Shown: positions 4,030-63,973, counted from the first letter of the stretch. The stretch: DNA of 64,000 nt from an uncultured Collinsella sp. (GCA_965151385.1 CBCTZJ010000005.1:6935-70934), one strand, 5' to 3'. A program made the numbers and translations. The notes: a model not told the origin generated them from the sequence alone.

Positions 4030-4041
4030 GATTGTCCTTTC

Positions 4042-4078
4042 AAAAACGCGTCCCGGCGACCGTTACCATTCCGCCGGG
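4042..4078 (-). promoter_or_regulatory. terminator-like hairpin plus U5 in the metK 5-prime leader, just upstream of the SD (possible attenuator)
   Basis: 7-bp GC stem cccggcg (4052-4058) / cgccggg (4072-4078). On the minus-strand RNA it is followed by UUUUU (4042-4046), then the SD aaagga and the ATG at 4029. Confidence 0.4.
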
Positions 4079-4134
4079 CTCTGTATGCAAGGGCACATCA
4101 TAGCGCGTAAATCCAACATTCACACCCTTTCCGC

Positions 4135-4215
4135 ACCTACTCATTGGGGACAGACTTAAATGACCAGTCGGGTGCTCATTGGGTAGTCATTTAAGTCTGT
4201 CCCCAATGAGTAGGT
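4135..4215. repeat. perfect 30-bp inverted repeat (4135-4164 / 4186-4215) with 21-nt spacer in the metK-gltX divergent intergenic region
   Basis: acctactcattggggacagacttaaatgac and gtcatttaagtctgtccccaatgagtaggt are exact reverse complements. Confidence 0.9.
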
Positions 4216-4296
4216 CAATGCCCTTTGTGCGGAGGTGGGCATTGTTGCTTTATACTGGTGCGGTTAGACATCCATCCTGCAATCGAGGAGATTTCC

Positions 4297-5772: not shown

Positions 5773-5795
5773 TAGCCGCGTAAACGTATGTATCC

Positions 5796-5829
5796 GAGCC
5801 CCGTTCACCCGAGCGGGGCTCTTGTTTCT
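5796..5829 (+). terminator. intrinsic terminator after gltX
   Basis: 8-bp stem gagccccg / cggggctc followed by ttgtttct. Confidence 0.7.
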
Positions 5830-5860
5830 GTAGACGTATGGGATGGGAGGTACAGGGACC

Positions 5861-46062: not shown

Positions 46063-46065
46063 GAA

Positions 46066-46761
46066 GTGTCTTTTTCACATTCGATCTGCAGCCCCACACG
46101 TAAGCTTGTAATAATCGGAGCAAGTGGGCATGGAAAGGTTATCGCCGACATCGCGCTGATGTGCGGATACGCGGACATTCTCTTTCTTGATGACAACCCT
46201 GCAGTTTCGCAATGCGCCGGATTCCCGGTTGTAGGAACGTCCTCAATGGCCGGAAAGCTCGGAGGCCGCTGTGATTACGTTGTCGCGATCGGCAACCCCA
46301 TGGCGCGAGAACGGATTCAGGAAAGCATCGATGGCAAACTGGTGACCCTTGTTCATCCTAATGCCACAATTGGGCGATGCGTAGAAATTGGTGAGGGCAC
46401 CGTCGTAATGGCTGGTGCCGTGGTTAATTCCGATACCGTTATCGGCAAGGGTGTGATTGTGAACACTTGTGCTTCGGTTGATCACGACTGTCGAATAGCC
46501 AATTACGTTCATGTATCCGTGGGGGCACATGTTGCGGGCACTGTGGATATCCATGAGCGCACGTGGCTCGGAATCGGGAGCTGCGTGACCAACAATGTGT
46601 CCATCTGTTCGGACTGTATGGTAGGTGCAGGAGCCGTCGTTGTGCGCGATATAGATGTATCCGGGACTTATGTAGGCATTCCGGCCAGGTTTTCACACGT
46701 TAATGAAAACTGGCCTTCTGCTGGACTAACTTCTCGGCAAAAGCCGACGCTCCTAGAATGA
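46066..46761 (+). CDS. NeuD/PglD-family sugar N/O-acetyltransferase
   Basis: A KLVIIGASGHGKVIADI Rossmann-like N-terminus plus a hexapeptide-repeat C-terminus. GTG start 3 nt after the ugd stop. Confidence 0.8.
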   Translation: MSFSHSICSPTRKLVIIGASGHGKVIADIALMCGYADILFLDDNPAVSQCAGFPVVGTSSMAGKLGGRCDYVVAIGNPMARERIQESIDGKLVTLVHPNATIGRCVEIGEGTVVMAGAVVNSDTVIGKGVIVNTCASVDHDCRIANYVHVSVGAHVAGTVDIHERTWLGIGSCVTNNVSICSDCMVGAGAVVVRDIDVSGTYVGIPARFSHVNENWPSAGLTSRQKPTLLE

Positions 46762-46981: not shown

Positions 46982-47417
46982 CCTGCCCAAGGACACCAAG
47001 CAGCTGCTGGCCAACTACAAGGACGTGCCCCAGAACCTGATCGAGGCCATCGTGGACGCCAACCGCACCCGCAAGGACTTCGTGGCCGACGAGGTGCTGC
47101 AGATGGTGTGGGACCGCGTGTACGCCGGCAAGGAGAAGCCGGTCGTGGGCGTGTACCGCCTGACGATGAAGTCGAACTCCGACAACTTCCGCGCGAGCTC
47201 CATCCAGGGCGTCATGAAGCGCGTGAAGGCCAAAGGCGTGCCCGTGGTGGTCTACGAGCCCACGCTGGACGCGCCGGAGTTCTTCGGCTCCGAGGTCACG
47301 CACGACCTGGAGGCCTTCAAGGCCGGCTGCGACGTTATCGTCGCCAACCGCTGGAGTGACGAGCTTGCAGATGTTTCAGAGAAGGTTTATACAAGGGACT
47401 TATTTAAACGCGATTAG
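46982..47417 (+). pseudogene. ugd 3-prime fragment, copy 2 (last 145 codons)
   Basis: 46982-47296 is identical to ugd 45627-45941. 47297-47417 differs at 21 mostly synonymous positions. There is no 5-prime part of the gene. Confidence 0.95.
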
Positions 47418-47430
47418 CTGAAAGGCGATA

Positions 47431-48606
47431 ATGGAAAAGAATATTCAGTTCAAAAATGATGGCCGTCTGAAACTGCTGATCATCGTGGGCACCCGCCCCG
47501 AGGTCATCCGCCTGTCCGAGGTCATCAAGAAGTGCCGCCGCCACTTCGACTGCCTGCTGGCTCACACCGGGCAGAACTACGACTACACGCTCAACGGCAT
47601 CTTCTTCCGCGACCTGGAGCTCGCCGACCCGGACGTCTACCTGGACGCCGTGGGCGCGGACCTGGGCGAGACCGTGGGCAACATCATCGCCTCGAGCTAC
47701 AAGCTCATGGTCGAGGTCAAGCCCGACGCGCTGCTGATCCTGGGCGACACCAACAGCTGCCTGTCCGCCATCGCGGCCAAGAGGCTCCACATCCCCATCT
47801 TCCACATGGAGGCGGGCAACCGCTGCAAGGACGAGTGCCTGCCCGAGGAGACCAACCGCCGCATCGTCGACGTGATCTCCGACGTCAACCTGGCCTACTC
47901 CGAGCACGCCCGCCGCTACCTCAAGGACACCGGCTGCGCCCCCGAGCGCACCTACGTCACGGGCTCGCCCATGGCCGAGGTCCTGCGCGCCAACCTGGGC
48001 AAGATCGAGGCCTCCGACGTCCTGACCGAGCTCGGCCTTGAGCCCAAGCGCTACATGCTGCTGTCCGCCCACCGCGAGGAGAACATCGACACCGAGGCGA
48101 ACTTCACGAGCCTGTTCACCGCCATCAACGCGCTTGCGGAGAAATACGACATGCCGATCCTGTACTCCTGCCACCCGCGCTCCCGCAAGCGCCTGGAGGC
48201 CACCGGCTTCGAGCTCAACCCGCGCGTGCGCATGCACGAGCCCATGGGCTTCCACGACTACAACTGCCTGCAGATGAACGCCTTCGCGGTGGTCTCCGAT
48301 TCGGGCACGCTGCCCGAGGAGTCGAGCTTCTTCGCGAGTGTCGGGCATCCTTTCCCGGCGGTGTGCATCCGCACCTCCACCGAGCGCCCCGAGGCGCTGG
48401 ACAAGGCCTGCTTCACGCTGGCCGGCATCTCCGAGAGGGGCCTGCTCCAGGCCGTCCACACCGCCGTCGAGCTCGACGCGGAGGGGTCGCTCCCCGAGGC
48501 CCCCGTTCCCGACTACGCCGGCGAGACCGTGTCCACCAAGGTCGTCAAGATCATCCAGAGCTACACCGGCGTGGTGGACAAGATGGTGTGGAGGAAGAAC
48601 CTGTAA
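47431..48606 (+). CDS. wecB: UDP-N-acetylglucosamine 2-epimerase (non-hydrolysing)
   Basis: The IIVGTRPEVIRL N-terminus, HMEAGNR and typical length. Confidence 0.9.
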   Translation: MEKNIQFKNDGRLKLLIIVGTRPEVIRLSEVIKKCRRHFDCLLAHTGQNYDYTLNGIFFRDLELADPDVYLDAVGADLGETVGNIIASSYKLMVEVKPDALLILGDTNSCLSAIAAKRLHIPIFHMEAGNRCKDECLPEETNRRIVDVISDVNLAYSEHARRYLKDTGCAPERTYVTGSPMAEVLRANLGKIEASDVLTELGLEPKRYMLLSAHREENIDTEANFTSLFTAINALAEKYDMPILYSCHPRSRKRLEATGFELNPRVRMHEPMGFHDYNCLQMNAFAVVSDSGTLPEESSFFASVGHPFPAVCIRTSTERPEALDKACFTLAGISERGLLQAVHTAVELDAEGSLPEAPVPDYAGETVSTKVVKIIQSYTGVVDKMVWRKNL

Positions 48607-48636
48607 TCGACGGGGTTTGAACTATGGAGTCGCTGG

Positions 48637-49350
48637 ATGGCAAAAGAATCCGATAGTTTTGCCAAGAATTTAGCAATTTCGGTTATAACCGGCCTGTTTA
48701 CTATTGGCGCCGAAGTGGCTGCAGCCTATTTGGTGCCACAGGTACAAAATCCGATAATAGTTAACAATAATGTTGTTATATCTACAGACGATTATGAAAA
48801 AGCGGTAGACAGGATTCAAGAGCTCGAAGAAGAGCTTAATGAACTGAGGCCTGTGAACTCGAACGAGAACAGCAGCACTGGAAACAGCGCTGCTTCTGGC
48901 GTATCGAGCCGGGCATTATTGAAAGATAAGCCCGGCTCGTCATCCAATTATTCACAGTCAGGCGATACGAACGCGAAAGATACTGCGGGAAATCTCTATG
49001 ACCCCAACCACTGGGGAATTATTGGATCTTGCTCAGCTTGCAGTGGCTTTGCCGACTATTATTTGGGCGGAAACTATTCCAAGCTGTCCATTACCATCGC
49101 CCCTTCCAGCACAAATATTGATGGAAAGGGCAACTCTACTTCATTCGAAATTCTTGTTAAATACAAAGGCGATTCCGATTTCAGATGCATTCATACTGAA
49201 AAAAACATTAATAAATCGACCTCTCCAATTCAGCTTGAGAACTTAGATATTTCTGGTGCCGAATGGATTGAATTCAAAGCTATAGAAAATGTAGATGAGG
49301 GCCATTTAAACGGCAACGTACTAATGATTGCGGATGCCATTGTTGGTTAG
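48637..49350 (+). CDS. hypothetical membrane-anchored protein, AT-rich
   Basis: One N-terminal TM helix (LAISVITGLFTIGAEVAAAYLV), a short coiled coil, a Ser/Asn linker and a beta-rich C-terminal domain of unknown family. Confidence 0.55.
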   Translation: MAKESDSFAKNLAISVITGLFTIGAEVAAAYLVPQVQNPIIVNNNVVISTDDYEKAVDRIQELEEELNELRPVNSNENSSTGNSAASGVSSRALLKDKPGSSSNYSQSGDTNAKDTAGNLYDPNHWGIIGSCSACSGFADYYLGGNYSKLSITIAPSSTNIDGKGNSTSFEILVKYKGDSDFRCIHTEKNINKSTSPIQLENLDISGAEWIEFKAIENVDEGHLNGNVLMIADAIVG

Positions 49351-49972
49351 TTTCTAGCCTACTTGGCGTTTGTGCTTAGAGCTTCTAGCTGCAACTGTTG
49401 TTGATATCCGGAGAAGAAAAATTACTAAGATTGGTTCATAGTCTGTGCGTTTGATAGAAACTAATCGACCTGCGTCGACATCCGCGGAGATGCTGCGGGC
49501 GATTCGCTGTTTACGTTCACATTGCTCGCCATTCTGGCCATCGGCTACATTGCCTTCGCCGTGCTGTTTGTCTGTTTCAAGATATTCATCGACAGGCTCG
49601 TCGCCCGCTGGCGCCATAACGCTTTGACCGAGAGCGAGCGGGCGTGGGCGCAGGACGGGGAGCGGGCTGCCCTGTCGCTGTGAGGGAGGATCTGTTCTCT
49701 CGAGAGCTGTGAAAAGCCCTCGGCATCGGCAGGCGGGTCAGCTCAAAGGACATAGCCACGATTCTTCTGACGAGGGCTACGTTCGCGGTCAACGTCGCGA
49801 CGATGGCGCTGGGCCTCGCTGCTTAGCTACCTCGGGCAGTGTGGCCGCACCTTTTGCCGAAACGGGCGTTCTTTTTGCCGAGTGGCCGCTGTCGTCCGCT
49901 TTCGCTAAAAGCTACAAAGTGGGAAAATGGCCGATGTACCAAAGGCTCGATTGAGGAAGCAGGAGCACTGGC

Positions 49973-51583
49973 ATGTCGCGCAAACCTAAGCGTCTCGAAC
50001 CGTTCGGCATCAAGGGGATTGAAGTCTCCAGGTTCCGTGCCATGCACGATCTCGAGATTGGGCTCGGGCAGCTCGTTACCGTGATAGCGGGACAGAATGG
50101 GACGAGCAAGTCCACCATATTGGGCATGCTGGGGCAACCGTTCGGGCTCAGGGACAGGAGGACCATCTTCGGTAGGCCGTTCAGCACCAAGTTCACCGAC
50201 ATATTCAACATGTCGCCCGAGCACGATATCCCGGGCGAGCATCTCTATTACGTCGATTTCAGGGACGAGGCCATTTCCGGATCCCAGGGGCAGCACGTCC
50301 AGGTCAAATCGTTTAAGCGTCCCGCAAAAGACAAATCTTCCATTCGTATCGTGACCGGCTCCTCCCGAGCCAAGGGCGAGGGTAACATTGACTACCCCGT
50401 AATCTACCTCGGCCTGAAAAGGACCAACCCGGTCGGCGAGTTCCTTAACCCGCAGGCCGAGCAGACGGACTTTTCGGAAAGCGAGATCGAGCGCTTTAAC
50501 CAGTGGTACGCTCGCGTTATGGTCGACCAGGAAAAAACCACCGATGTTGTCAGGATGTCGAAGCACGGCCAGAAGGAGACCCTTCTCGTCAACACCGCCA
50601 CCTACGACTACCTCGCCAACTCCGCCGGGCAGGACAACCTTGGACAGATATTGGGCGCCCTCATCTCCTTTGAGCGGCTCGCCGACGTCATGGGCGAGGA
50701 GTACAGGGGTGGCCTTCTCCTGATCGACGAGCTCGACGTGACTCTGTTCCCCTCCTCCCAGGTGAGACTTTTCGATTTGCTGAAGGAGCGGGCCGCTGCT
50801 CAGAGGGTGCAGGTTGTTTTCACCACCCACTCGATGACGCTCCTTGAGAAGGCCGTCAAGGAGACGCAGGGCAAAAACGATGCGGTTAAGGTCCTGTATC
50901 TCAAGAAGAGGGAGTCCGGGATCAGGCTGACGATAAATCCGCCGATAGACGAGATTCAAGCCGACCTCATGGTTGAGCCGCTGAGGCCGAAAAAGGGCCC
51001 CAAGGTCGAAATCTGGTGCGAGGACGACGAGGCGAAGTGGGTGCTCGGGCAGATAATGCCTTCGCGGCTGAAGCGGAAATGCGATATTGTCTCCGCGAAG
51101 CTCAGCTGCGGCGAGCTGGGAGAGCTCGCCGTTAGGGACATAGCCTCGCTGCGAGGCGTGTGCTTCGTTGTGGACGCCGATTCAAACAGGGGTGCGGCAA
51201 AGAAGATAAAGGATTGCGCCAGAAGATTCGTGCTACCTGGAGGCGACAAGTCGCCTGAGCAGTCCATATACGATTTGCTTTGCGGCCTCTCGGACGAAGA
51301 CGACTTTTGGAGCAATGGCAGGCATTACACCAAGCAGGTCATGCTCAGCCGATTTGCCGACTCAAAGCGCGACTTCGAGCACAACGGCGGGGATAAGGAG
51401 CGCAAGCACTACAAGAAATGGTTCAGGAGAGAAAAGGCCGAAGGGCTGTGGGGCGAAAACGGCTTGGCTGTCGCCGCCATCTGGAAAGAGAGGTATGAAT
51501 CGGAGATTAGGGACTTTAACGAGAAACTCGAGCGAAGAGTTGACGCAATCATAAAACGGCAGCAGTATGAACGGGAACAATAG
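49973..51583 (+). CDS. OLD-family-like ATPase with C-terminal Toprim-like region
   Basis: Walker A GQNGTSKST and Walker B LLLIDELDVTLFP. The C-terminus has EIWCEDDEAKW (Toprim Glu) and, about 55 aa later, CFVVDADSN (DxD). Confidence 0.6.
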   Translation: MSRKPKRLEPFGIKGIEVSRFRAMHDLEIGLGQLVTVIAGQNGTSKSTILGMLGQPFGLRDRRTIFGRPFSTKFTDIFNMSPEHDIPGEHLYYVDFRDEAISGSQGQHVQVKSFKRPAKDKSSIRIVTGSSRAKGEGNIDYPVIYLGLKRTNPVGEFLNPQAEQTDFSESEIERFNQWYARVMVDQEKTTDVVRMSKHGQKETLLVNTATYDYLANSAGQDNLGQILGALISFERLADVMGEEYRGGLLLIDELDVTLFPSSQVRLFDLLKERAAAQRVQVVFTTHSMTLLEKAVKETQGKNDAVKVLYLKKRESGIRLTINPPIDEIQADLMVEPLRPKKGPKVEIWCEDDEAKWVLGQIMPSRLKRKCDIVSAKLSCGELGELAVRDIASLRGVCFVVDADSNRGAAKKIKDCARRFVLPGGDKSPEQSIYDLLCGLSDEDDFWSNGRHYTKQVMLSRFADSKRDFEHNGGDKERKHYKKWFRREKAEGLWGENGLAVAAIWKERYESEIRDFNEKLERRVDAIIKRQQYEREQ

Positions 51584-51620
51584 AGAGGCCGCTTGTTCGA
51601 CACATTGAGGAGGTGAGAAG

Positions 51621-52454
51621 ATGGCGACTACGTACACGCCCATCAGGTATCCTGGCGGGAAGACGAAGCTGTACCCCGAGATCAGGGCGATCCTCGAGAT
51701 GAACGACTTGCTTGGGCATCCCTACGCCGAGCTGTTCGCCGGCGGTGCGGGGCTGGCCATCAAACTTCTCCTGAAGGGCGACGTGTCCTCGATCGTGATT
51801 AATGATTACGACCGCGCCGTGTACTGCATGTGGGGTGCCATCGTCAATCACGCCGAAGAGATGTGCGAGTTCATCGACTCCGCCGTCTTGAACATCGAGA
51901 CCTGGAAGAAGATGCGCGACATGTACCAGAATCATGACGGGGTGGGTGATTTTGAGCTCGGCAAAGCGGCTTTCTACCTCAACAGGACGAACGTGTCGGG
52001 TATCTTGAGTGGCGGCGTCATAGGCGGGCTCGAGCAGACCGGCAACTACAAGATGGACGTTCGCTTCAACCGCAGGACCTTGAAGAAAAAGGTCATGGAC
52101 ATCGCGGCGCGAAGGGACGACATTGAGGTGACGAGACTCGACGCGGAGGACTTCATCGACGATAGGATGGGCGACTCTGAACTGTTTGCCTACCTCGACC
52201 CGCCGTATGTGCAGAAGGGCCCCGGTCTGTATCGCAGCGCGTTCGACGAGGCGAAGCATAGGTCGCTCGCCCGAAAGGTCGGCGATGCCAGGAGCAAGTG
52301 GGTCGTGACCTACGATGCCGACAAGCTCATCGACGACATCTACGGCAATTACGAGCGCGGGGACCTTGAGATTAGCTACACGGCCAACGTGAAGACCGTC
52401 GGCAGGGAGAAAATCATTCTCGGACCGGGCCTTGTCTGGCCTGAAGAGCTCTGA
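51621..52454 (+). CDS. dam: DNA adenine methyltransferase (Dam / D12 class)
   Basis: The N-terminal YPGGKTKLYPEI SAM-binding motif and the catalytic DPPY (YLDPPYVQKG). ggaggtg SD. Confidence 0.88.
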   Translation: MATTYTPIRYPGGKTKLYPEIRAILEMNDLLGHPYAELFAGGAGLAIKLLLKGDVSSIVINDYDRAVYCMWGAIVNHAEEMCEFIDSAVLNIETWKKMRDMYQNHDGVGDFELGKAAFYLNRTNVSGILSGGVIGGLEQTGNYKMDVRFNRRTLKKKVMDIAARRDDIEVTRLDAEDFIDDRMGDSELFAYLDPPYVQKGPGLYRSAFDEAKHRSLARKVGDARSKWVVTYDADKLIDDIYGNYERGDLEISYTANVKTVGREKIILGPGLVWPEEL

Positions 52455-52472
52455 CGCTTGGGGCTCACCCCC

Positions 52473-52508
52473 TTATGTTTCAAAAAGGCCACACTTTTTG
52501 AAACATAA
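52473..52508. repeat. perfect 15-bp AT-rich inverted repeat 19 nt after the dam stop
   Basis: ttatgtttcaaaaag / ctttttgaaacataa with loop gccaca. Confidence 0.85.
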
Positions 52509-52614
52509 CCCAAAAGTTGAGCCTTGATGCGCTGCCCTAAACCCTCCTTACCGTTCGCCTGCGTTTGCATTGGTGCTGTACGCAGCTAGGATATGCGCGT
52601 CGCGACAGCCCATC

Positions 52615-52692
52615 TTACGGCCGCGGTCGGCGGCTGGCCTTTATCGAACGGGCGTGAACGTCGAGCCCTGTGAAAGTGTTAACATTGTTCAT
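52615..52692 (-). mobile_element. IS110-family transposase N-terminal fragment (remnant)
   Basis: MNNVNTFTGLDVHARSIKA resembles the DEDD transposase N-terminus (xGxDVHxxS). It is truncated after about 25 codons. Confidence 0.35.
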
Positions 52693-52899
52693 CGAATGCC
52701 CCTTCCATGAATGCGGTGTAGGCGCTGGTTGTTTGAACGCCATTATTGTCGGCCTAATCCGCGGATAAGCATGCAGGAGGGTTTTCCGGCTTTTCATGTC
52801 CTGCTCATAGCGTCTTGCTTTAGTTTTTCTGATGTTGCCAAGACTTATCCGGTTTTGAGCTTTTGTCCGATAAATCTCTTGCTGTTCGTCCAGATCCAT

Positions 52900-53165
52900 T
52901 GATTTGACAATCGTTTGGGCCTTTTAGCACGGTATCCTTCGAGTGTAACCAGAACTGTATTTCCTTGGGAGGCGAATCTATACAGACATTGATGCCTCTT
53001 CGCACGACTGACGGACTTGATAAAAAGGACCTTGGCATAGGTAAAAAGTGACTCGCGAAAGACGGGGCTCGCCGTAAGCACAAGAATAACGCGTGTTCGA
53101 CCTCGTCGGTGGTCAACGAAGGCGCCTAGCGGGGTTCCGATGTAAAGCGGGTGGACCTTGAGGCC
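52900..53165 (-). mobile_element. IS66-family TnpB (Orf2)-like remnant, frameshifted
   Basis: VDHRRG...SPVFRESLFTY resembles TDMRKG...DPFSGxLFVF. A second frame gives KEIQFW, which resembles EEGQFIWP. The fragment is degenerate. Confidence 0.35.
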
Positions 53166-53199
53166 TCTGCGGTACCCCGCTTCTTCCGTTATGACGTCA

Positions 53200-53544
53200 G
53201 ATTCGGTGAGCTGCGCGTTGTTGGCCAAAGCGAGCCCCGCCGATAAGGTTGCTGCAATCAAAGACCCCGAGGTGCTCGTCAGCGTACACCACTTGAAGTC
53301 CAATTCCGACAACTTCCGCGCGAGCTCCATCCAGGGCGTCATGAAGCGCGTGAAGGCCAAAGGCGTGCCCGTGGTGGTCTACGAGCCCACGCTGGACGCG
53401 CCGGAGTTCTTCGGCTCCGAGGTGACCCACGACCTGGAGGCCTTCAAGGCCGGCTGCGACGTGATCGTCGCCAACCGCTGGAGCGACGAGCTCGCGGACG
53501 TGGCGGACAAGGTGTACACGAGGGATCTGTTTAAGCGGGACTAG
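53200..53544 (+). pseudogene. ugd 3-prime fragment, copy 3
   Basis: 53305-53519 is identical to ugd 45823-46037. The upstream ~100 nt still read as a diverged Ugd (LLAKASP...[21 protein letters not shown]). The 5-prime boundary is approximate. Confidence 0.9.
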
Positions 53545-53609
53545 GGACTAGGGGAGAGAGCAGAACCAGGCTGAACGGCTTCAATCATTCGCTAGCTTAA
53601 CCGCGTCGA

Positions 53610-53660
53610 GGGCGGGGTGTATCGGCTAATACCGATACACCCCGCCCTTCGTTGTTCTTT
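53610..53660 (+). terminator. strong intrinsic terminator after ugd copy 3
   Basis: 16-bp perfect stem gggcggggtgtatcgg / ccgatacaccccgccc, loop ctaata, then ttcgttgttcttt. Confidence 0.85.
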
Positions 53661-53858
53661 GCAATTAAAATTCGCCTAATTCGAGCGAGCGTAGGCCATC
53701 ATTTATTGGAATGCGGGTGTTGATAACGCATTGGGACCGTTGGCCCCGTGTTCTACGCGGAAACATATACTGCTAATGGCAGGAATTAATCATCCCTATA
53801 TAGAAGCCGTTTGATTAAACTAATAGTGTGAAATGAAGCTAATTATTTAAGGTCAGTA

Positions 53859-55406
53859 ATGGTGCTCCAATCCTATGACAAGCTTTTCGCTCCTTCCAAG
53901 GCCTACTGGGCTTATTGGCAAGAGCTTACGGAGGATGCTGTCTACAACGGACTAATTATTGAAGGATGGTTTGCCGACAAACTACCTCCTATTTTTACGG
54001 CTGAAAAATTTCTTTCTTATTGCAATAATCGCAAAATGGCAAGTAACAATTCGCCCTCAGATTGGATTAGATTTAATTACATACGTTGCAATGGTCAATA
54101 TCGAGAGTTTGGCATTCCGACCCCCTTTACATATGAGCGCTTGGCACGCGGTATAGCCGATAGCTGGAACGAAATAGTTTGTCACGTTCAAAAACAAACT
54201 TTATTGCAGTCTTATTCGGTTAGCAGAATTCATCCTCGCTTGATTCCTGATTCGCAGGCTATTTTCCAAATGAACTATTCAAACTGGATGAACGACCCTA
54301 GTCCAGAACCTGCCATTCTTATTGGGAAGCAATATGTTGTCAAATGCGACATATCCACCTGTTTTCCAAGTATATATACGCATTCTTTGTCGTGGGCGAT
54401 TATGGGTAGGGATAGGGCGAAACAAGACAGGACAGTTCGTCCAGATAACTGGGCGAATAAAATTGACAAATTGCTTCAAAATGTGTCCGACGGTGAGACC
54501 CACGGGCTATTGATTGGACCACATTCTTCGAATGTAGTCTCAGAACTAATTCTTACAGTCATCGATGCCAATTTATACAATAAAGGCTATCGATTTATTC
54601 GTAATATTGATGATTACAACTGTTACGTCGCTTCACAACAAGAGGGCGAGGGTTTTATCCTCTCGTTACAAGAAGAACTGTCCAAGTTTCGCCTGAGACT
54701 GAATCAAAAGAAAACTGAGGTACTGGAATTACCCATGGCGCTCTCACAAAGCTGGGTGAATTCTTTAAGGCGTAATGAGCCAATTAAGTCGGATCCGCTT
54801 GGATACAAGGACGTGTCATCCTTTTTGGAATACGCGATCAGCCTACTTCCCTCTTATCAAAATAATGCCTCAATATTGTTGTATGCATTTAAAATGCTCA
54901 CATCGCATTCGTTGAACCCTTCGGCAAAAGCCTATTTTCGAGATTTTGCTATACACCTCGCAATCGTATATCCATACCTTCTGCCGACATTTGAGGAAAC
55001 GGTAATTGAGCCGTTGAACATGAGCGAGGAATATATCGAGTGCCTCTCAAACAGCATCATCTATGAGTGCCTTAATCGTGGCGACTATCTTTCGGTTTGC
55101 TACGGACTTTACTACGCAATTAAATATGACTTTGAAATTGATGTACCCGAATTTGAGGATATCGAAAAGTCCAATGACTGCCTGCTGTATTTATTCGTCT
55201 ATTTATACGCCAAGCACTTTAAAAATAAAGCTTTGCTTGATCGGCTAAACGATCTTGCAGAGGAATTTCCTGAAGAAGGTCGCGAATTTGAAGAGATGTG
55301 GCTTTTTCTCTACCATATACGATCAAAAGAGTGCTTACCGTCTGATGAGTGGAAGGCCATTAAAAAGAGGGGAATCAAGTTCATTAAACCCGAATATTTA
55401 AAATAA
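53859..55406 (+). CDS. reverse transcriptase, Abi/UG (defence-associated) class
   Basis: RT motifs in order: REFGIPTP; VVKCDISTCFPSIY (motif A, D164); GLLIGPHSSNVVSEL (B); FIRNIDDYN (C, D251-D252); LRLNQKKTEV (D/E). A ~220-aa helical C-terminal extension follows. The two 60-nt samples counted are 35-42% GC. Confidence 0.85.
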   Translation: MVLQSYDKLFAPSKAYWAYWQELTEDAVYNGLIIEGWFADKLPPIFTAEKFLSYCNNRKMASNNSPSDWIRFNYIRCNGQYREFGIPTPFTYERLARGIADSWNEIVCHVQKQTLLQSYSVSRIHPRLIPDSQAIFQMNYSNWMNDPSPEPAILIGKQYVVKCDISTCFPSIYTHSLSWAIMGRDRAKQDRTVRPDNWANKIDKLLQNVSDGETHGLLIGPHSSNVVSELILTVIDANLYNKGYRFIRNIDDYNCYVASQQEGEGFILSLQEELSKFRLRLNQKKTEVLELPMALSQSWVNSLRRNEPIKSDPLGYKDVSSFLEYAISLLPSYQNNASILLYAFKMLTSHSLNPSAKAYFRDFAIHLAIVYPYLLPTFEETVIEPLNMSEEYIECLSNSIIYECLNRGDYLSVCYGLYYAIKYDFEIDVPEFEDIEKSNDCLLYLFVYLYAKHFKNKALLDRLNDLAEEFPEEGREFEEMWLFLYHIRSKECLPSDEWKAIKKRGIKFIKPEYLK

Positions 55407-55445
55407 TGACTGGATGTAATTATTTTCGTCTGCAGAGGTGCAACT

Positions 55446-57239
55446 ATGACTGGGCGTATTCCTTGGACGCGATATTCAGGTGAAGATATAGAATCGGTTC
55501 TAGCGACGTTAATTTCTCTTGAAGAGCGTGACGCCATTAAAATTCGACCTTCTAGGGGCGATGGTGGAATTGATCTTATCGTTTACCCTGATACCGAAAC
55601 GGTCAATGTATATCAAATTAAGAAATTTGCTGAAAACCTAAAGAGCAGTCAGAAGGCTCAGATTGAGAATTCGTGGAAAGAATTATTGACAACTACTGCT
55701 GATTTGCATTTAAAAATCAATAACTGGCATCTTGTGATGCCATTAGATCCCACAAACGAGAATCTAAGATGGGCTAAGGAACTGGTTGAACCTTCTGGTA
55801 CTAAATTCATCTGGGATGGCCTTTCAAGAGTTGATGGCTGGGCGTCCAAACACCCAGAAGTAATAAATTATTACTTTTCAAATGGAAAAGAAGAGGTCTC
55901 TGAGTATGCTGCGAAGCTGCTCTCCTTGGCCAATCTTCCAGACTGCAGCGATCCAGCCATTCTCGAGAGTAGGCTGCGCGATCTTTGTTCCAATCTAGAT
56001 AAACTGGATCCATACTATGCATATTCAGTTCACGTGCTCTCAGAATACGACAAACGCGATGATCTTTGCCCACGTGTCCCTGGTGTTGTTATGTCCCAAA
56101 TTCTAGTAACCCCTGGAGCGGGCCGAATCGCAATCGACGTAATTGAAAAAACGCCAATTGCTTCAATGCTGCATCCATTAACCTTTTCAGTGAAAATCAT
56201 TGCAGGGACCGACGATGAAAAAGAGCAAGCCCAGAATTTTATTGAATATGGCGTGCCCTTCTCTTCGTTGCCAGCGGAAGTAATTGATCAAAATTGCCAA
56301 TTACCTGTTGGACGTTCCTGCGATGGTATTCGAAAGGGAATCATTAAGGCCCTTGACCTGCCCGTATCAAATTGCATAAGAACGGCCTCTTTATTCTGGG
56401 AAGGATGCGGTGAACTGCGGTTAATAGTTGACAAAGCCACCCATGGAACTAAAGGGGTATTCTTTTCTGCCCACGATGCGACGGAAACATTCAGATTGAA
56501 CTTTAAGTGGAATGCAAGTCAGCCCGGCGGCACCATTAACTACGAGTTTTCATTTAGCAATTTAGCCAATAAACGCTCTCGAGACGTTGCAAGAACCTAT
56601 CGATTCTTAAGCGAAGCCACTGATAAAAAAGTTGAGCTCCGAATCAATGGCATGAGCGCTCTCTATTTTAATCTCGGCATTAGGGAAGATCTGGTTGTGA
56701 CAGTTAATGATATATACAGTCTGGCGGTTGCGTTAGAAACCGTTAACGGGGCCGCGGACAGCGAGATGCCATTTCCTGACCTTTGTGAAGCTACTAGAGG
56801 AGAAATTGCAAATCTAAGAGTTGCAGCAAGGCTGCTCGATGGCGAAGCAGTTGTATATAGCTGGGAATCACATGGGTTTAATCTAGAAGGGGATGAAGTC
56901 CAAAACTTTGAATACCCCTCTTTAGCGCGCTGGATTAAGCCTTTAGCTGTTAAGCTTGGAAGCAAAGAGGCATTCTGCGGTTTTGCGCAGACTACTCTAG
57001 TAATTGGTTCTTCAGAGTGCTCAACAGACCAAATAAATGATTCTGAACGTAAGCTAGTCTTAAACCCAGATGATCAGTACGGTAACAAAGCTATATGTGT
57101 AATGGTTTCACCAAATGAAGATGTACTGAAGGACCGAGATACTTTATGGACCGTTCGTCCTCCAAAAGTAGACGACTGGTTAACAATGGTTGAAGCTGCC
57201 GAATCATCAGCTGGAGGTTTAAAGCAATTGTCAAAGTAG
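55446..57239 (+). CDS. PD-(D/E)xK (Mrr-like) nuclease-domain protein with a large uncharacterised C-terminal region
   Basis: The N-terminus reads SGEDIESVLATLI...RGDGGIDLIVYP...VYQIKKF (D..D...QxK signature). The remaining ~450 aa have no motif I recognise. It lies 40 nt downstream of the RT on the same strand and has similarly low GC. Confidence 0.6.
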   Translation: MTGRIPWTRYSGEDIESVLATLISLEERDAIKIRPSRGDGGIDLIVYPDTETVNVYQIKKFAENLKSSQKAQIENSWKELLTTTADLHLKINNWHLVMPLDPTNENLRWAKELVEPSGTKFIWDGLSRVDGWASKHPEVINYYFSNGKEEVSEYAAKLLSLANLPDCSDPAILESRLRDLCSNLDKLDPYYAYSVHVLSEYDKRDDLCPRVPGVVMSQILVTPGAGRIAIDVIEKTPIASMLHPLTFSVKIIAGTDDEKEQAQNFIEYGVPFSSLPAEVIDQNCQLPVGRSCDGIRKGIIKALDLPVSNCIRTASLFWEGCGELRLIVDKATHGTKGVFFSAHDATETFRLNFKWNASQPGGTINYEFSFSNLANKRSRDVARTYRFLSEATDKKVELRINGMSALYFNLGIREDLVVTVNDIYSLAVALETVNGAADSEMPFPDLCEATRGEIANLRVAARLLDGEAVVYSWESHGFNLEGDEVQNFEYPSLARWIKPLAVKLGSKEAFCGFAQTTLVIGSSECSTDQINDSERKLVLNPDDQYGNKAICVMVSPNEDVLKDRDTLWTVRPPKVDDWLTMVEAAESSAGGLKQLSK

Positions 57240-57480
57240 GCTATTCTTACGATTTCCACCTGTAAGGGTCCTTTGTTACAGACTTAGGATTTTATGAACG
57301 CCAATCGACTCGAGGCGATTCATCCTTTCACCGATTGGCAAAACGATTTACACCTAATTTTGCGAATCGATTACAGGCTTTTAGCCTGCCCGTGCCTTGA
57401 TCTCGCTACACTAATACCTACTGCTACCAGGACATTTCCTGGTACATCTTTCATTGGCTCTTGCGAAGATCGGAGCGGTT

Positions 57481-58575: not shown

Positions 58576-58722
58576 TGCGGTACGACGCACCTGGCAGCAA
58601 TACAAGAGCTCTGTAGGAGCTTTAAGGGCAACGCTTTCTTATTACTTCTCTGTACCACCTTTGGGGGTAACCACCGTGCCATACCTTGGTGCTATACTCG
58701 GAGCCCTAAGGAAGTGGTTCAT

Positions 58723-59505
58723 ATGTACTTGAGCGATACTAAGATTCAGGAGCTAATCGACAGCGAGGTTCTGCTCCATGCCGATGCTTCGAACATCGGA
58801 CAGGTTACGTATGACTTGCGCACCGACGGCTTCTACATTAACGAGAACAAGCAGTCCGAGGTCGAACTCGGTCCTGGTGATTCGACATTCGTCTCTTGCG
58901 TTGAATGTGTTGCGTTGCCAAACGATTTGACCGCTAGCGTACTTCTGCGTAATTCGCGCATTCGCCAGGGGCTTTCTTTGGATGCGCCGCTATATTTCCC
59001 CGGACATGGAACACGGCTGTTTTACCGTGTTACAAACGTAAGCGGCAACACTATTACGCTCGATAAGTCAAAGGGTATAGCGCAGGTTGCATTCCAGCGC
59101 GTTGATGGCATGGTGGCCCATCCTTACCACGGCGCTTTCTCTGATGAGCTCAACTTTAAAGGACTTGCAGATTATTCCGACGTCTATGCCGGGGAACTTA
59201 AAAAGGTCGAGGACAAGAAGGAAGAAATCATCAATATCGAGTCCCGTATCTATGGCAACGTCCTGGCCCTCTTCGCCATTTTCGCTGCGATCTTTACGCT
59301 CGTAAACGTCAACGCCGGAGGTCTGTCCTCCAATATAACAACCGTCAACTTTGTTGCACTCGACCTGCTGATTATTGGCGGTTTTCTGGTCCTAGCGTCC
59401 GCAATCGAGGCCTTCCTTGTTAAGGACAAAGAAAAGAAGGCGAGGTTGCCTCTTGCATTAGGTATCGTTTGTATTGTCGTGGCAGTGGTTCTTGCATTTC
59501 AGTAA
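58723..59505 (+). CDS. dCTP deaminase/dUTPase-fold domain fused to a C-terminal three-TM module
   Basis: [13 protein letters not shown]..., [36 protein letters not shown] and FPGHGTRL...TNVSG match Dcd-family blocks. Residues ~185-260 form three hydrophobic helices. aaggaag SD. Confidence 0.6.
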   Translation: [260 protein letters not shown]

Positions 59506-59720: not shown

Positions 59721-59828
59721 GTGCTTTGGAGCTATGTTCAGCTTGATGATGGCACCCAGTTTGCCTACTCAGAGACAAGAGAAGACGGAACCGTTCGCGT
59801 AGCCGTCGAGCGCCCGATTGAGACATGA
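59721..59828 (+). CDS. small ORF (35 aa) translationally coupled to the MNT gene
   Basis: GTG behind an aaggagg SD. ATGA overlap with 59825. The N-terminus VLWSYVQLDDG is paralogous to MLWGNVQNDDG of ORF 63276. Confidence 0.45.
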   Translation: MLWSYVQLDDGTQFAYSETREDGTVRVAVERPIET

Positions 59829-60124
59829 TTTCGACTACCGACATATCCACCGCGGTCTCCCGCGTGCTGACTCAATACGACGTCAGCGAAGCGTATTTAT
59901 TTGGCTCGTTTGCCCGAGGCGAGCAAACGCCCGATAGCGATATTGACTTGCGCCTAGTCTGCGGCAGCACCATGACGTTCGGCACGCTTTACGAACTCTC
60001 TCATGAACTCGAGAAGGAACTTGGGCGAAAGGTCGATATCGTCACCAACCCACCAGAGCACATGCGCCCGCCCTTCCGCAAAAGCATCGAGCAGGAAGAG
60101 GTGCGCATCTATGAAGTGCTGTAA
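59825..60124 (+). CDS. minimal nucleotidyltransferase (MNT-type antitoxin-like)
   Basis: LFGSFARGEQTPDSDIDL (GSxxRGxxxxxSDxD) motif, 99 aa. Confidence 0.85.
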   Translation: MISTTDISTAVSRVLTQYDVSEAYLFGSFARGEQTPDSDIDLRLVCGSTMTFGTLYELSHELEKELGRKVDIVTNPPEHMRPPFRKSIEQEEVRIYEVL

Positions 60125-60532: not shown

Positions 60533-61708
60533 ATGAAGTTGTTAAAGGTTTGCTTCGACCATCTCACGATGTTCGAAGACGGGTTATTCGATATCGATTT
60601 GTTCGCCTCCGACCGCGTGACGGCCTCCGATGAGTCGGCTTTCGAACTGGCGGACCATCTCTACGTGAATAGCGTCGTTGCGCTGGCGGGCATTAACGCT
60701 ACGGGCAAGACGACAGCACTGAACCTGCTGGAGCTCGCCTGCCGCATTGTTGACGGCTCTCCGGCGCGCGGCGGCGGGCTCCCATCAACGTTCCCCGCCG
60801 CGTTCGACGGCCCGTCCAAGCTCAAGTGCGTCATATGGCACGCAGATCGTCTTTACTTGCTCGAGTCGGTGCTGCAGACTGTCGAAGGAGGCGACGACGG
60901 TCCCGAGCTGACGTTCTCCGATGAGGTGATTTCTTCGCTGCCAGCCAAGGCCCTCAAGCGCTCGACCCTGGCATCCTGGGCCGAAATCGAGAAACTCGCG
61001 TCCCCGCTGTGCGACCGTGCTCAGATGCCGGACTCTTGGGCGGCGCTTACGCCGCCTGACGTTTCCGTCGCAGCCGCTGTGCTCGCCAAGGACTTCGGCC
61101 ATCGCATCCGAGCGATAGCATTGCGCGACGGTGGCTTCCGCCTCACTGAGCAATTCAACGGTCTCGACGACGTGCTTCGTGTTTTCGACTCTGGCATCGA
61201 GCACCTCGAGGTCCGGGACTCCGGTCGCGCCTTCGTACTGACGTTTACAGGTCGCGAGCCCATCACGATCTCCGAGCGGGGGCTCACCGAGGTGCTCTCC
61301 TCCGGCACTGTACGTGGCCTAGGGCTGGTGCAGCGCGCAATGAGGGTCCTGCGCTCCGGCGGCTACCTTTTAGTCGACGAGGTGGAGAACCACCTTAACC
61401 GCCAACTGGTTAACGTCGTGCTTGATCTGTTTGCCGCCCGCGGGACCAACCCCAACGGCGCGACGCTGGTTTTCACGACTCACTACCCGCAGCTCCTCGA
61501 TCACGTGCACCGCAAGGACAACGTGTTCTTTCTCGCCCGACGCAACAGCGGTGCGCGCGTGGTGAAGTACGCCGACCGCGTGAAACGCATCGAGAACAAG
61601 AAATCGGAGGTATTCGCCTCGAACTTTGTGAAGGGGACCGCTCCGCGCTACGCCGACGTGCGCGCGCTTAAGGAGCTCGTCGCAGAGGAGGTGTCCGATG
61701 AGCGGTGA
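60533..61708 (+). CDS. AAA/ABC-type ATPase (AAA_21-like)
   Basis: Walker A GINATGKTT, Walker B YLLVDEVENHL and a downstream FTTHYPQLL. Confidence 0.75.
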   Translation: MKLLKVCFDHLTMFEDGLFDIDLFASDRVTASDESAFELADHLYVNSVVALAGINATGKTTALNLLELACRIVDGSPARGGGLPSTFPAAFDGPSKLKCVIWHADRLYLLESVLQTVEGGDDGPELTFSDEVISSLPAKALKRSTLASWAEIEKLASPLCDRAQMPDSWAALTPPDVSVAAAVLAKDFGHRIRAIALRDGGFRLTEQFNGLDDVLRVFDSGIEHLEVRDSGRAFVLTFTGREPITISERGLTEVLSSGTVRGLGLVQRAMRVLRSGGYLLVDEVENHLNRQLVNVVLDLFAARGTNPNGATLVFTTHYPQLLDHVHRKDNVFFLARRNSGARVVKYADRVKRIENKKSEVFASNFVKGTAPRYADVRALKELVAEEVSDER

Positions 61709-62228
61709 TGGCGGCTTTTGCTTTTCGGGGTACCATCCGGTAATCTCCTGCGAGGGCACCGCGGAAAAGGTGACCGTGGACATTCTGCTCGAGGCGGACG
61801 CGCTCGTCTTTCCAGAGGCCGACGTCGTGGACGTCACCCGCCTGCGCAAGGCCTCCGATATCCAAGATAACTACCTCAACTTAGACTATGACTGGCCAGT
61901 CTGCATCGTCAGGGTGCTGGACTCGAGGAAAGAACGCTTCAAACTCGGCAACCTGTACGCCGGCCGCTTCCCGGTGGTTAGCTACGTGACCCATCCCGAG
62001 ATAGAGGTGCTGGCCATTATTCGAGAGGGCTCGTGGAGACGCTGGCACGGCGGACGCATGAAACCGAGCGACTTCTGCAAACAGGAGCTCGACATGCACG
62101 AGGTAAAGAGGGAAGGCTTCCTCAAAAGTTATTGGGATGCCGATTCGCTTACGGCAGCCGCCAGGGAATACAAGCGACTTTCGAAGATCCCCAAGGGCGA
62201 GTTGTGCCTGGCAGACCTCATCCGGTAA
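61698..62228 (+). CDS. small partner protein of the ATPase, weakly Toprim/RloB-like
   Basis: 11-nt overlap with the ATPase gene. VISCEGTAEKV (acidic Glu as in Toprim/RloB) and DYD about 44 aa later. The assignment is weak. Confidence 0.4.
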   Translation: MSGDGGFCFSGYHPVISCEGTAEKVTVDILLEADALVFPEADVVDVTRLRKASDIQDNYLNLDYDWPVCIVRVLDSRKERFKLGNLYAGRFPVVSYVTHPEIEVLAIIREGSWRRWHGGRMKPSDFCKQELDMHEVKREGFLKSYWDADSLTAAAREYKRLSKIPKGELCLADLIR

Positions 62229-62574: not shown

Positions 62575-63264
62575 ATGACCCACGCTTACAGTGAGATGTA
62601 TCTCGAGGATGCCATGAGAACGCTGGGCGAGGCGGTCGATTTTGCCCTCTGTGACCAAGGGCTGACTCCAGCCGAGTTGACGGCGATCCTGTCGAACGCT
62701 TTAGAGATGAAACAGTTTGAGCGCGGTATGCCTCGCGTCGTCTGCGGCATGGCGGGCGACGAGCTCGCGCGCGATATTATCGCCCATGCGGGACTAAGCC
62801 CCGCCGAATGCAGGGAGATCTATCCGTTCGACCGTTCGCCTCAGTATTGGGCGGGCTGGGTTTTGGCCTATACGCAATGGAGGTGCGGCTTGGGCTTTAA
62901 TGAGCTACTCGAAGTCACCCCGCTCGATTGGATCATCGGCTCGTACGATCCGCTTCACGAGGCCTCCGAAGACAAATTCGCCCAGATTGTCATTGATAAA
63001 TGGAACAACGCCCAGGCAGACAAAAAGGGCCTCAAAGCGGCACGAAAGGCGGCCGGACTAACGCAAAAACAGCTCGCCGCCCAATCGGGGGTTAAGCTTC
63101 GCGCCATACAACTCTACGAGCAGAATCAGCTTGACCTACGCCGTGCCTCGGTCTACTCGGCATTGGCGCTCGCAAAAACCCTAAACTGCGCCATCGAAGA
63201 CCTCGTCTGGCAACCGGTTGCCCTGGAGTACGACTCGCGGGTTATTCCATCCATAGAGCTATAA
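62575..63264 (+). CDS. XRE-family helix-turn-helix protein with uncharacterised N-terminal domain
   Basis: C-terminal LKAARKAAGLTQKQLAAQSGVKLRAIQLYEQ HTH_3 pattern. Confidence 0.8.
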   Translation: MTHAYSEMYLEDAMRTLGEAVDFALCDQGLTPAELTAILSNALEMKQFERGMPRVVCGMAGDELARDIIAHAGLSPAECREIYPFDRSPQYWAGWVLAYTQWRCGLGFNELLEVTPLDWIIGSYDPLHEASEDKFAQIVIDKWNNAQADKKGLKAARKAAGLTQKQLAAQSGVKLRAIQLYEQNQLDLRRASVYSALALAKTLNCAIEDLVWQPVALEYDSRVIPSIEL

Positions 63265-63275
63265 AGGAGGCAGAC

Positions 63276-63461
63276 ATGCTTTGGGGCAATGTTCAAAATG
63301 ATGACGGCGCTGGCATAGCTGTTCAAGAAGATCATTCAATAGCGCACGAGGCAAATTCAACATTACCGATTTCGCTCGACGGCGTCACGTCTATCGACGA
63401 TGCTATTCGGCTGACTATTGCGGTCATGCCCAACGCGCTCAGACTCTTGGAGAACTCATGA
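63276..63461 (+). CDS. small protein upstream of Doc (putative antitoxin)
   Basis: 61 aa, aaggagg SD and ATGA overlap with the Doc gene. Confidence 0.55.
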   Translation: MLWGNVQNDDGAGIAVQEDHSIAHEANSTLPISLDGVTSIDDAIRLTIAVMPNALRLLENS

Positions 63462-63973
63462 TGGCGAACACGAAGCGGGGCACGCATCCGTTCGCGCCGC
63501 TCGTGCTCGACGATGCCGGTTCGCTCGAAGCTATGGCCGCGGCCGTGATGCGTCTACACAGCACGCTGATGACCGTCGGGCGCTGCTATACGACCGACGC
63601 CGCGGGCGACCGTGCCGCACTTGAGCTTGGACGCGTCGAGTCCGTACTTGCAGGTTCATTCTGTACGATATTCGGCCAATCGCCGGCCGATCGCTTCGCA
63701 GACATCTTTGACCAGGTCACCTACGTGGCCGAGCACATGGTCAAGGACCACATCTTTGAGGACGGCAACAAACGCACCAGCCTTGTCTTTGCGTTGTCCG
63801 TCTTAAGGTTCGCCGGCACTCCGGTCGTGCTGTCCGACAGCCCCGAGCCCAAAGACAATCAATACTATGCCTGGATCCAGGACCTTGTTTCCAGTCGCCG
63901 CACGACCAGCGAGCTAGCCGAAGAGCTGCGCCGCGGTTGTGTTGTAGGCTCGGGCGACCCGTCGCGCGTATAG
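63458..63973 (+). CDS. doc: Fic/Doc-family toxin (death-on-curing type)
   Basis: HIFEDGNKRTS matches the Doc motif Hxx(D/E)(A/G)NKR. 171 aa. Confidence 0.85.
   Translation: MMANTKRGTHPFAPLVLDDAGSLEAMAAAVMRLHSTLMTVGRCYTTDAAGDRAALELGRVESVLAGSFCTIFGQSPADRFADIFDQVTYVAEHMVKDHIFEDGNKRTSLVFALSVLRFAGTPVVLSDSPEPKDNQYYAWIQDLVSSRRTTSELAEELRRGCVVGSGDPSRV

Follow-up and report, generated by a model that had tools for sequence, protein, structure and literature searches.

Divergent DRT4 reverse transcriptase and an orphan Mrr-like nuclease as probably independent genes of a cassette-swapping defense-island slot in Collinsella

The stretch of DNA analyzed here ("the window") comprises 64,000 nucleotides (nt) from an uncultured Collinsella sp. 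(GCA_965151385.1 CBCTZJ010000005.1:6935-70934), in which two neighboring genes encode a reverse transcriptase (RT) of 515 amino acids (aa) and a 597-aa protein with an N-terminal nuclease domain. A preliminary description of the window presented them as a candidate new RT-based two-gene defense system. The evidence instead favors, with a probability of roughly 75%, two independent single-gene defense determinants in a recombination-swapped slot of a Collinsella defense island. The RT falls within the named, stand-alone DRT4 (UG15) family, and the two genes do not co-occur outside one Collinsella locus. Independent functions are indicated because the nuclease keeps its reading frame and its constraint after the RT gives way to a Gabija cassette, because neither family associates with the other elsewhere, and because DRT4 is experimentally self-sufficient. 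The two open reading frames (ORFs) were confirmed on the + strand with an intervening gap of 39 nt, and their parts are as follows.

53859..55406, + strand: DRT4 (UG15) class 1 UG/Abi RT gene, 515 aa, with predicted priming Tyr140, catalytic D251/D252 and a C-terminal alpha-repeat region
55446..55925, + strand: Mrr/Cap4-type PD-(D/E)xK N-terminal domain of the nuclease, residues 1-160 (E16 ... D39-x3-D43 ... Q57-x-K59)
55926..57239, + strand: helical linker plus beta-rich middle and C-terminal domains of the nuclease, residues 161-597, the presumed specificity/sensor part

The RT had been placed in the Abi/UG (DRT) group rather than among retrons, group II introns or diversity-generating retroelements, and profile hidden Markov model (HMM) classification bore this out, resolving the protein to Drt4. 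All five motifs quoted for it occur in order in the ORF at 53859-55406, starting at residues 82, 160, 216, 246 and 279, and the aspartates of the IDD motif are D251/D252, as described. The PADLOC Drt4 model PDLC02178 matches residues 14-513 (profile positions 3-504 of 506) at 6e-186 and 617 bits; the next-best non-Drt4 model, Drt6, reaches 7.7e-90, and UG30, UG14, AbiK, Drt3b and Drt8 are all far behind. Drt4 is also by far the top NCBIfam model (366.6 bits, E value of 2.3e-109), and no retron or Drt2 model in the NCBIfam search does better than an E value of 9e-4. The closest solved structures are cryo-electron microscopy entries of Escherichia coli DRT4/UG15 (21ou_A, 1.2e-48, RT residues 66-495). 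In the alignment to 21ou_A, Y125 (IMNYED) lies opposite Y140 (QMNYSN) and D240/D241 (RYIDDY) opposite D251/D252 (RNIDDY). The alignment extends to chain residue 485 of 540, equivalent to RT residue 495 of 515, and a C-terminal alpha-repeat domain appears to be fused to the RT palm. The ratio of nonsynonymous to synonymous substitution rates (dN/dS) between RT alleles is ~0.11. By these sequence comparisons the RT is assigned to DRT4/UG15, as a divergent new member of a known and mechanistically characterized family.

DRT4 is a single-gene system that needs neither a noncoding RNA (ncRNA) nor a partner protein (Wang et al. 2025, PMC12783706), and UG15 is counted among the stand-alone multidomain class 1 RTs (Mestre et al. 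2022, PMC9226505). The enzyme assembles as a dimer of trimers, is template independent, and uses as protein primer Tyr125, a residue absolutely conserved across 174 DRT4s (PMC12783706). Random single-stranded DNA (ssDNA) is made constitutively and cleared by host 3'-5' exonucleases, and toxicity arises once the ssDNA 3' end is covered by a DNA-binding protein of the phage (T5 ORF55) (PMC12783706). The window RT shares with the E. coli 12-c8-a protein (PDB 21ou/9ltm/9vdo) a whole-length HMM match, the order of N-terminal region, RT palm and C-terminal alpha-repeat, the palm priming Tyr (MNY) and the xIDD catalytic motif, as well as a stand-alone habit in defense islands without a conserved partner or ncRNA. 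Unlike that protein, to which it scores only 169 bits, it has NIDD in place of YIDD, comes from an actinobacterial gut anaerobe, and is known here from sequence. By homology, the 515-aa RT would form a hexamer, would carry out Tyr140-primed random ssDNA synthesis without a template, and would kill the infected cell once a phage DNA-binding protein protects the RT-made ssDNA from host exonucleases. It would require neither a partner protein nor an ncRNA.

The relationship of the two genes within Collinsella was assessed in 20 species-level GTDB genomes and 24 Collinsella-type metagenome contigs, which gave 40 informative loci and four that were cut; loci are designated by L numbers. The gene before the nuclease is DRT4 in 7 of the genomes and a Gabija cassette in 11 (2 cut), and it is DRT4 in 12 and Gabija in 10 of the metagenome loci (2 cut). 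Over the 40 informative loci, this amounts to 19 with DRT4 and 21 with Gabija before the nuclease. The Gabija genes were identified as GajA (4.4e-184) and GajB (1.9e-153); together with a gene for a 183-aa protein (p183) they form a three-gene cassette at ~3800-7800 in loci with 8-kb flanks. Gabija precedes the nuclease in genome loci L002, L003, L006, L008-L010, L014-L016, L018 and L019 and in metagenome loci L047, L048, L054, L055, L058, L060, L063, L065, L066 and L068. The same surface-protein gene always comes next after the nuclease in the 20 genomes. Both ends of the exchanged segment can be placed in the window.

53294..53545, + strand: third copy of the ugd 3' end, a 252-nt direct repeat and left anchor of the swappable cassette slot
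55311..55445, + strand: 3'-terminal ~95 nt of the RT gene and the 39-nt spacer, right breakpoint of the cassette exchange

In blastn comparisons, RT-less (Gabija) loci align to the window from 55311-55317, ~95 nt inside the RT 3' end. This ugd 3' fragment also lies ahead of DRT4 in L013, L049 and L052, and ahead of the Gabija cassette in L008, L009, L015 and L048. Judged from dN/dS, the nuclease is under equal purifying selection in the two contexts (medians of 0.196 for Gabija-context copies and 0.232 for RT-context copies). The adjacency evidence within Collinsella comes from one syntenic locus and counts as a single evolutionary event.

In about half of the Collinsella loci, Gabija fills the exact slot before the nuclease; it also lies beside the divergent family members in L107 and L080. 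Its proteins are unrelated to DRT4 or to the nuclease. This adjacency is best read as defense-island clustering. Gabija was considered as the true partner of the nuclease and rejected: it adjoins the nuclease in Collinsella, L107 and L080 but is absent from the other 32 divergent groups. GajA is split in L003 and L065. No paper linking Collinsella with Gabija or related defense systems was found in the literature searched.

A second DRT4 allele (80% identity and a synonymous distance of ~1.0 to the window allele) is present in L004, L007, L012, L017, L050, L051, L053 and L059. It is preceded by low-GC genes for proteins of 293 and 220 aa (L007:4145-5026 and 5230-5892) and not by ugd; the 293-aa protein has weak matches to the PADLOC candidate PDC-S31.

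Co-occurrence outside Collinsella was assessed from both sides. Divergent nucleases, located with a 12-sequence alignment, formed 34 groups (<80% identity; 70 loci) from metagenomes and actinobacterial plasmids of Rhodococcus, Mycolicibacterium, Pseudarthrobacter and Micrococcus. No DRT4-type RT lies within ~5 kb of the nuclease in any of the 34 groups, and no neighbor family recurs in more than 3 of them. The flanks hold Gabija, Wadjet JetA, an Mrr_cat-nSTAND1 protein, an nSTAND3 protein, GmrSD, KwaB, Shedu SduA_C, a retron, type IV and type IIG enzymes, a BstXI endonuclease, SocA/Panacea and integrases, which is typical defense-island and mobile-element content. Conversely, relatives of DRT4 at 44 to 62% identity to the window RT were sampled at 11 loci encoding six proteins. 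No nuclease of this family lies downstream of the five with a readable flank (the contig of L035 ends 56 nt past the RT), and the downstream genes vary. The co-occurrence analysis proposed in the preliminary description thus places neither family beside the other outside the syntenic Collinsella locus, where Gabija replaces the RT in about half of the cases. By the standard set in that description, a lack of co-occurrence in other genomes, the reading as a new RT-based two-gene system is refuted.

Two of these flanks contain further associations. In L032 (2994-4824), a divergent member of the nuclease family lies 177 nt 3' of a retron-like pair (an STM3845/RcaT-type protein and a 306-aa RVT_1 RT); this is the one further case observed of an RT next to the nuclease, and that RT belongs to another class than DRT4. 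In L045 (2204-3409), a gene whose product starts with ILGNGFD and has a weak AbiH match (4.9e-4) comes after a DRT4 relative of 61% identity, which illustrates the DRT4 clade beside varied defense genes.

The nuclease ORF (55446-57239, +) encodes 597 aa, with GDGGIDLIV from residue 38 and VYQIKKF from residue 55. Its family was represented by an alignment of 57 sequences at 22 to 38% identity to the window protein, plus one Collinsella relative at 84%. W7, G38, G41, D43, Q57 and K59 are invariant across the 57 homologues, with conservation of 90% or more at E16 and D39. These residues correspond to the D...QxK signature of Mrr-type enzymes and indicate a genuine PD-(D/E)xK N-terminal domain; the earlier assignment, including D43 and K59, is upheld. 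The window protein has no match in Pfam or NCBIfam, not even to Pfam Mrr_cat (PF04471) at an E value of ≤1. Weak Mrr_cat matches occur in 7 of the 57 relatives (best, 1.7e-4), and one Streptomyces relative bears a precomputed PF04471 match. The LmuA nuclease region in PADLOC (profile positions 30-133 of 343) is matched by 48 of the 57, and the only PADLOC matches of the window protein itself are weak, N-terminal ones to LmuA and Avs2 (residues 17-112). No NCBIfam model matches any of the 57 members, and the region of residues 161-597 has no Pfam, NCBIfam or PADLOC match in any of them. Sequence and profile searches of the PDB and a tblastn search of phage genomes with the nuclease gave no match.

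An AlphaFold (AF2) model of the nuclease based on a multiple sequence alignment had a mean predicted local distance difference test score (pLDDT) of 88.6 and a predicted template modeling score of 0.71, whereas a single-sequence model reached a pLDDT of only 33.8. Foldseek matched the first ~160 residues to Avs4 (8dgf_B; probability of 1.00 over 162 columns), N.BspD6I, EcoT38I, EcoO109I, Cap4 and Card1, at probabilities of 0.8 to 1.0, and the modeled N-terminal domain carries an alpha-beta-beta-beta-alpha-beta core. Searches of the PDB and BFVD with the full-length model gave no credible match for the helical linker or the beta-rich domains, in keeping with the earlier remark that the remainder carries no recognizable motif. 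Foldseek alignments of the C-terminal part to PCNA- and Hsp70-like structures were dismissed (probability of <0.2, root mean square deviation of ~20 Å).

The window protein resembles Mrr-family and type IV restriction endonucleases in its D...QxK signature and fold and in being a single gene in defense islands, usually without a methyltransferase. It differs in that its nuclease domain is N-terminal rather than C-terminal, does not reach the Pfam Mrr_cat model, and is followed by a C-terminal part of ~400 aa without a recognized reader domain. The effector domains of Lamassu LmuA and of Avs2/Avs4 are its best profile (LmuA) and structural (Avs4 N-terminal) matches. In Lamassu and Avs, the Cap4/Mrr-type domain is an infection-activated DNA-degrading effector. 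Unlike Lamassu, the window nuclease has no LmuB/SMC partner, its adjacent genes being DRT4 and the surface-protein gene, whose product is PADLOC negative. Unlike Avs, it has no STAND NTPase domain detectable with Pfam or PADLOC, and its remainder is unrelated. No methyltransferase adjoins the nuclease in 29 of the 34 divergent groups or in any Collinsella locus, which is compatible with type IV (modification-dependent) restriction. By analogy, a nuclease that stands alone, with no methyltransferase linked to it, should be either modification dependent (type IV-like) or inactive until infection. From Mrr-family enzymes and the Cap4/Mrr effector domains of Avs and Lamassu, we infer that the Mrr/Cap4-type domain would cut DNA in a self-contained nuclease defense of the type IV restriction or sensor-nuclease style, with the C-terminal region providing target recognition or infection sensing.

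In a library clustered at 50% identity, the nuclease family has 968 representatives at an E value of ≤1e-3 and 570 at ≤1e-10. Most are 560 to 600 aa long and align over their full length; they come mainly from Actinomycetota and gut metagenomes, and public labels on the relatives read "hypothetical protein" or "restriction endonuclease". Within the protein, dN/dS is 0.105 in the nuclease domain and 0.31 over residues 371-588. The gene is also a recombination mosaic, in which blocks of 98 to 100% identity stand beside blocks of 76 to 88% in comparisons with L003, L004, L013 and others. For example, identity between L013 and the window is ~98% over the RT and the initial third of the nuclease and 76 to 88% beyond, and L003 is ~90% identical across the 5' half of the nuclease and 100% identical over 56511-57100. 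Mosaicism and the rising C-terminal dN/dS would be the expected pattern for a specificity domain under diversifying pressure. A new single-gene antiphage system with a novel sensor domain is a possible description of the family, at somewhat below even odds.

The gap of 39 nt between the RT and nuclease genes contains a GAGG ribosome-binding site and no predicted terminator, and the genes are probably cotranscribed in the window. Cotranscription would probably reflect history rather than a functional requirement. GC content is 0.39 to 0.45 along both genes, compared with 0.65 in ugd, in agreement with the contrast noted before; GC and third-position GC (GC3) are 0.41/0.44 for the RT and 0.44/0.38 for the nuclease, and GC3 of ugd is 0.94. 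Both genes are foreign low-GC DNA within the defense island of a 65%-GC host.

Several observations weigh against the independence of the two genes. All 19 sampled Collinsella RTs of the window clade have the nuclease directly downstream, with spacers of 39 to 43 nt. Gabija loci retain a decayed relic of the RT 3' end upstream of the nuclease, and RT plus nuclease is therefore the older arrangement. Furthermore, RT and nuclease are alike in low GC and GC3, unlike the Gabija cassette (~0.51/0.56), and this similarity, together with the relic, suggests that the pair may have been imported as one unit. Other points bear on each gene separately. The RT scores below the cutoff of the NCBIfam Drt4 equivalog NF041749 (366.6 versus 450 bits), which marks it as part of a divergent DRT4 subclade. 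The nuclease is pseudogenized in L007, L014, L019, L060, L063, L064, L067 and L068 and is to that extent dispensable; the RT is present in L007 and L064, and Gabija is present in L014, L019, L060, L063 and L068. In addition, the activities of both proteins are predicted by analogy, and the role assigned to the nuclease C-terminal region is wholly inferred.

The pair could alternatively be a genuine lineage-specific two-gene system, in which the nuclease would serve DRT4 in Collinsella as an accessory effector or regulator, for example one activated by, or trimming, the protein-linked ssDNA of DRT4, and was later co-opted by, or is tolerant of, Gabija. The tight same-strand spacing without a terminator, the shared composition, the constant presence of the nuclease gene wherever the RT occurs in Collinsella, and the relic that marks the pair as ancestral at the locus all fit such a coupling. 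Nucleases that degrade DRT4 ssDNA are, moreover, central to the DRT4 model (PMC12783706). An RT gene beside a PD-(D/E)xK nuclease gene is also known from the UG7/DRT8 variant (Mestre et al. 2022, PMC9226505), but the window RT is not UG7 (Drt8 at 2.3e-29, over residues 127-290 only, versus Drt4 at 6e-186), and its nuclease has no conserved association with any RT. Nevertheless, coupling is unlikely: the nuclease is intact and equally constrained in the approximately half of loci where Gabija has replaced the RT, neither protein has the other beside it in the 34 divergent nuclease groups or among the RT relatives with readable downstream flanks, E. coli DRT4 is self-sufficient, and L007 combines an intact RT with a stop codon in the nuclease.

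A second alternative concerns the 597-aa protein, which could be an ordinary sequence-specific type II/IIS-like endonuclease with its methyltransferase elsewhere, e.g., the Dam-like enzyme encoded at 51621-52454. The Foldseek matches to N.BspD6I, EcoT38I and EcoO109I and the "restriction endonuclease" label on some relatives are in line with this, as is a DNA methyltransferase (C5, N6/N4 or Eco57I type) within ~3 kb of the nuclease in 5 of the 34 divergent groups (L070:3910-5262, -; L102:633-1733, +; L098:6091-7323, -; L086:4603-5748, -; and L078:1930-5992, +). The methyltransferase adjoins the nuclease in four of these groups, the exception being L098 (~3 kb); in two groups the genes are transcribed divergently, resembling restriction-modification (R-M) pairs, and a subset of the family might be true R-M endonucleases. 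For the window protein the explanation is quite unlikely, as 29 of the 34 groups and all Collinsella loci have no adjacent methyltransferase, some of the adjacent methyltransferases own another endonuclease (BstXI type or type IIG), and the methyltransferase at 51621-52454 is missing from the other Collinsella loci that keep the nuclease and scores as PD-Lambda-5_B. A type II R-M family was not adopted as the general reading, with methyltransferases in only 5 of the 34 groups.

The same protein might have no defense function and serve as a repair, recombination or mobile-element maintenance nuclease at the island edge. Its gene stays constant at the locus as the defense cassettes change, plasmid copies lie near relaxase, type IV secretion system and ligD genes, and no whole PADLOC system is matched. 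However, the gene is foreign DNA, low in GC compared with the 65% of the host; it is patchily distributed and often pseudogenized, and it shows intragenic mosaicism and faster evolution of its C-terminal part. Its neighbors across unrelated taxa are overwhelmingly defense genes, and its nuclease domain type serves as the effector of Lamassu and Avs. A nondefense role is accordingly quite improbable.

It is very improbable that the nuclease is a shared downstream module, cooperating in the Collinsella lineage with whichever cassette lies upstream. With DRT4, such a module would sense or process the protein-linked random ssDNA, as an executioner or as a brake on autoimmunity. The idea draws what plausibility it has from the nuclease 39 to 43 nt downstream of every sampled RT of the clade and from the seeming co-arrival of the pair; if true, it would provide the first DRT4 variant with an accessory effector.

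Independent single-gene function of the RT is also consistent with the region upstream of its gene, which begins after the strong terminator noted in the preliminary description.

53608..53649, + strand: intrinsic terminator at the end of the ugd fragment; its 18-bp stem includes 12 GC pairs, and a T-rich tail comes next
53650..53858, + strand: RT leader/promoter region, not a conserved ncRNA, with only the last ~55 nt shared with loci of the 80%-identical RT allele

The leader had been suggested to encode a template ncRNA, as in DRT2, DRT9 or retrons, on the basis of 210 untranslated nt upstream of the RT and five CTAAT pentamers within 53648-53858. Four copies are indeed present there (53676, 53773, 53820 and 53839), whereas the fifth (53626) sits in the terminator loop, and the count is not beyond chance, since some pentamer occurs at least four times in 11.5% of shuffles of this stretch. 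The part shared with loci of the other RT allele is the final ~55 nt before the ATG, TTTGATTAAACTA ... TTAAGGTCrGyAATGG; further upstream, those loci have unrelated sequence and different preceding genes. With an RT from another clade than the RNA-templated retron, DRT2 and DRT9 enzymes, a DRT4 mechanism that needs no template (PMC12783706), no conserved structured ncRNA in the leader, folding no more stable than that of shuffles (z = +1.24) and no Rfam match to the 210 nt, a template ncRNA is exceedingly improbable.

The third ugd copy belongs to a series of direct repeats of the ugd 3' end. Copies of 252 nt lie at 45812-46063, 47167-47418 (92%) and 53294-53545 (98%), and island growth seems to have used the ugd 3' end repeatedly as an anchor for recombination or integration. 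A further repeat stretch pairs 45627-45926 with 46982-47281, and identities across the direct repeats are 92 to 100%. The repeats bracket two inserted segments, an acetyltransferase-like gene (46066-46761) and a block of ~5.9 kb (47419-53293), and the third copy stands immediately before the DRT4 cassette. Within this block, an ATPase gene at 49973-51583 (weak NsnB-, GajA- and PtuA-like matches) is followed by the Dam-like methyltransferase gene at 51621-52454 (PD-Lambda-5_B, 2.5e-99), and the two possibly constitute a PD-Lambda-5-type system. A short ORF at 52615-52899 (-) ends, by eye, in an IS110-like transposase N terminus (MNNVNTFTGLDVHARSIKA) and looks like a truncated insertion sequence fragment between the methyltransferase gene and the third ugd copy.

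Downstream of the nuclease gene, a weak terminator-like hairpin precedes further putative defense genes.

57425..57444, + strand: weak terminator-like hairpin, an 8-bp stem followed by a T-rich tail

An ORF at 58714-59505 encodes a PADLOC-negative 263-aa protein with a hydrophobic C-terminal third (GC content of 0.50) and is present in some Collinsella loci, e.g., L018. It is followed at 59825-60124 by a gene for a 99-aa nucleotidyltransferase (PADLOC candidate PDC-S09, 2.8e-20), probably the MNT half of an MNT/HEPN-type pair. At 60533-61708, a gene for an AbiLi-like AAA ATPase (PADLOC, 5.3e-29) runs into the beginning of the next ORF (61698-62228; 176 aa, no matches), and these likely form a two-gene abortive-infection pair. 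Inspection by eye also suggests a likely toxin-antitoxin pair, consisting of a 229-aa protein containing a helix-turn-helix motif (62575-63264) and a PADLOC-negative 171-aa protein with a Doc/Fic-like FEDGNKRT motif (63458-63973). The defense-type setting reported for the pair is therefore borne out, with the PD-Lambda-5_B-like methyltransferase and ATPase upstream and the AbiLi-like ATPase and PDC-S09 nucleotidyltransferase downstream.

The mechanism of DRT4 was solved in 2025, and the RT, a divergent member of that system, is expected to add little new RT biology. The nuclease belongs to an orphan family of 968 clusters at 50% identity for which Pfam, NCBIfam and PADLOC offer no model, apart from a weak Mrr signal. 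Given its consistent defense-island setting and its well-folded, faster-evolving region of ~400 aa, the family can reasonably be regarded as a candidate new single-gene nuclease defense. The locus itself is a clean natural case of cassette exchange in a gut commensal, in which DRT4 and Gabija alternate between the ugd 3' repeat and the nuclease and the exchange leaves an RT relic. Modest interest attaches to the orphan nuclease family as a separate lead and to the DRT4/Gabija swap as a by-product.

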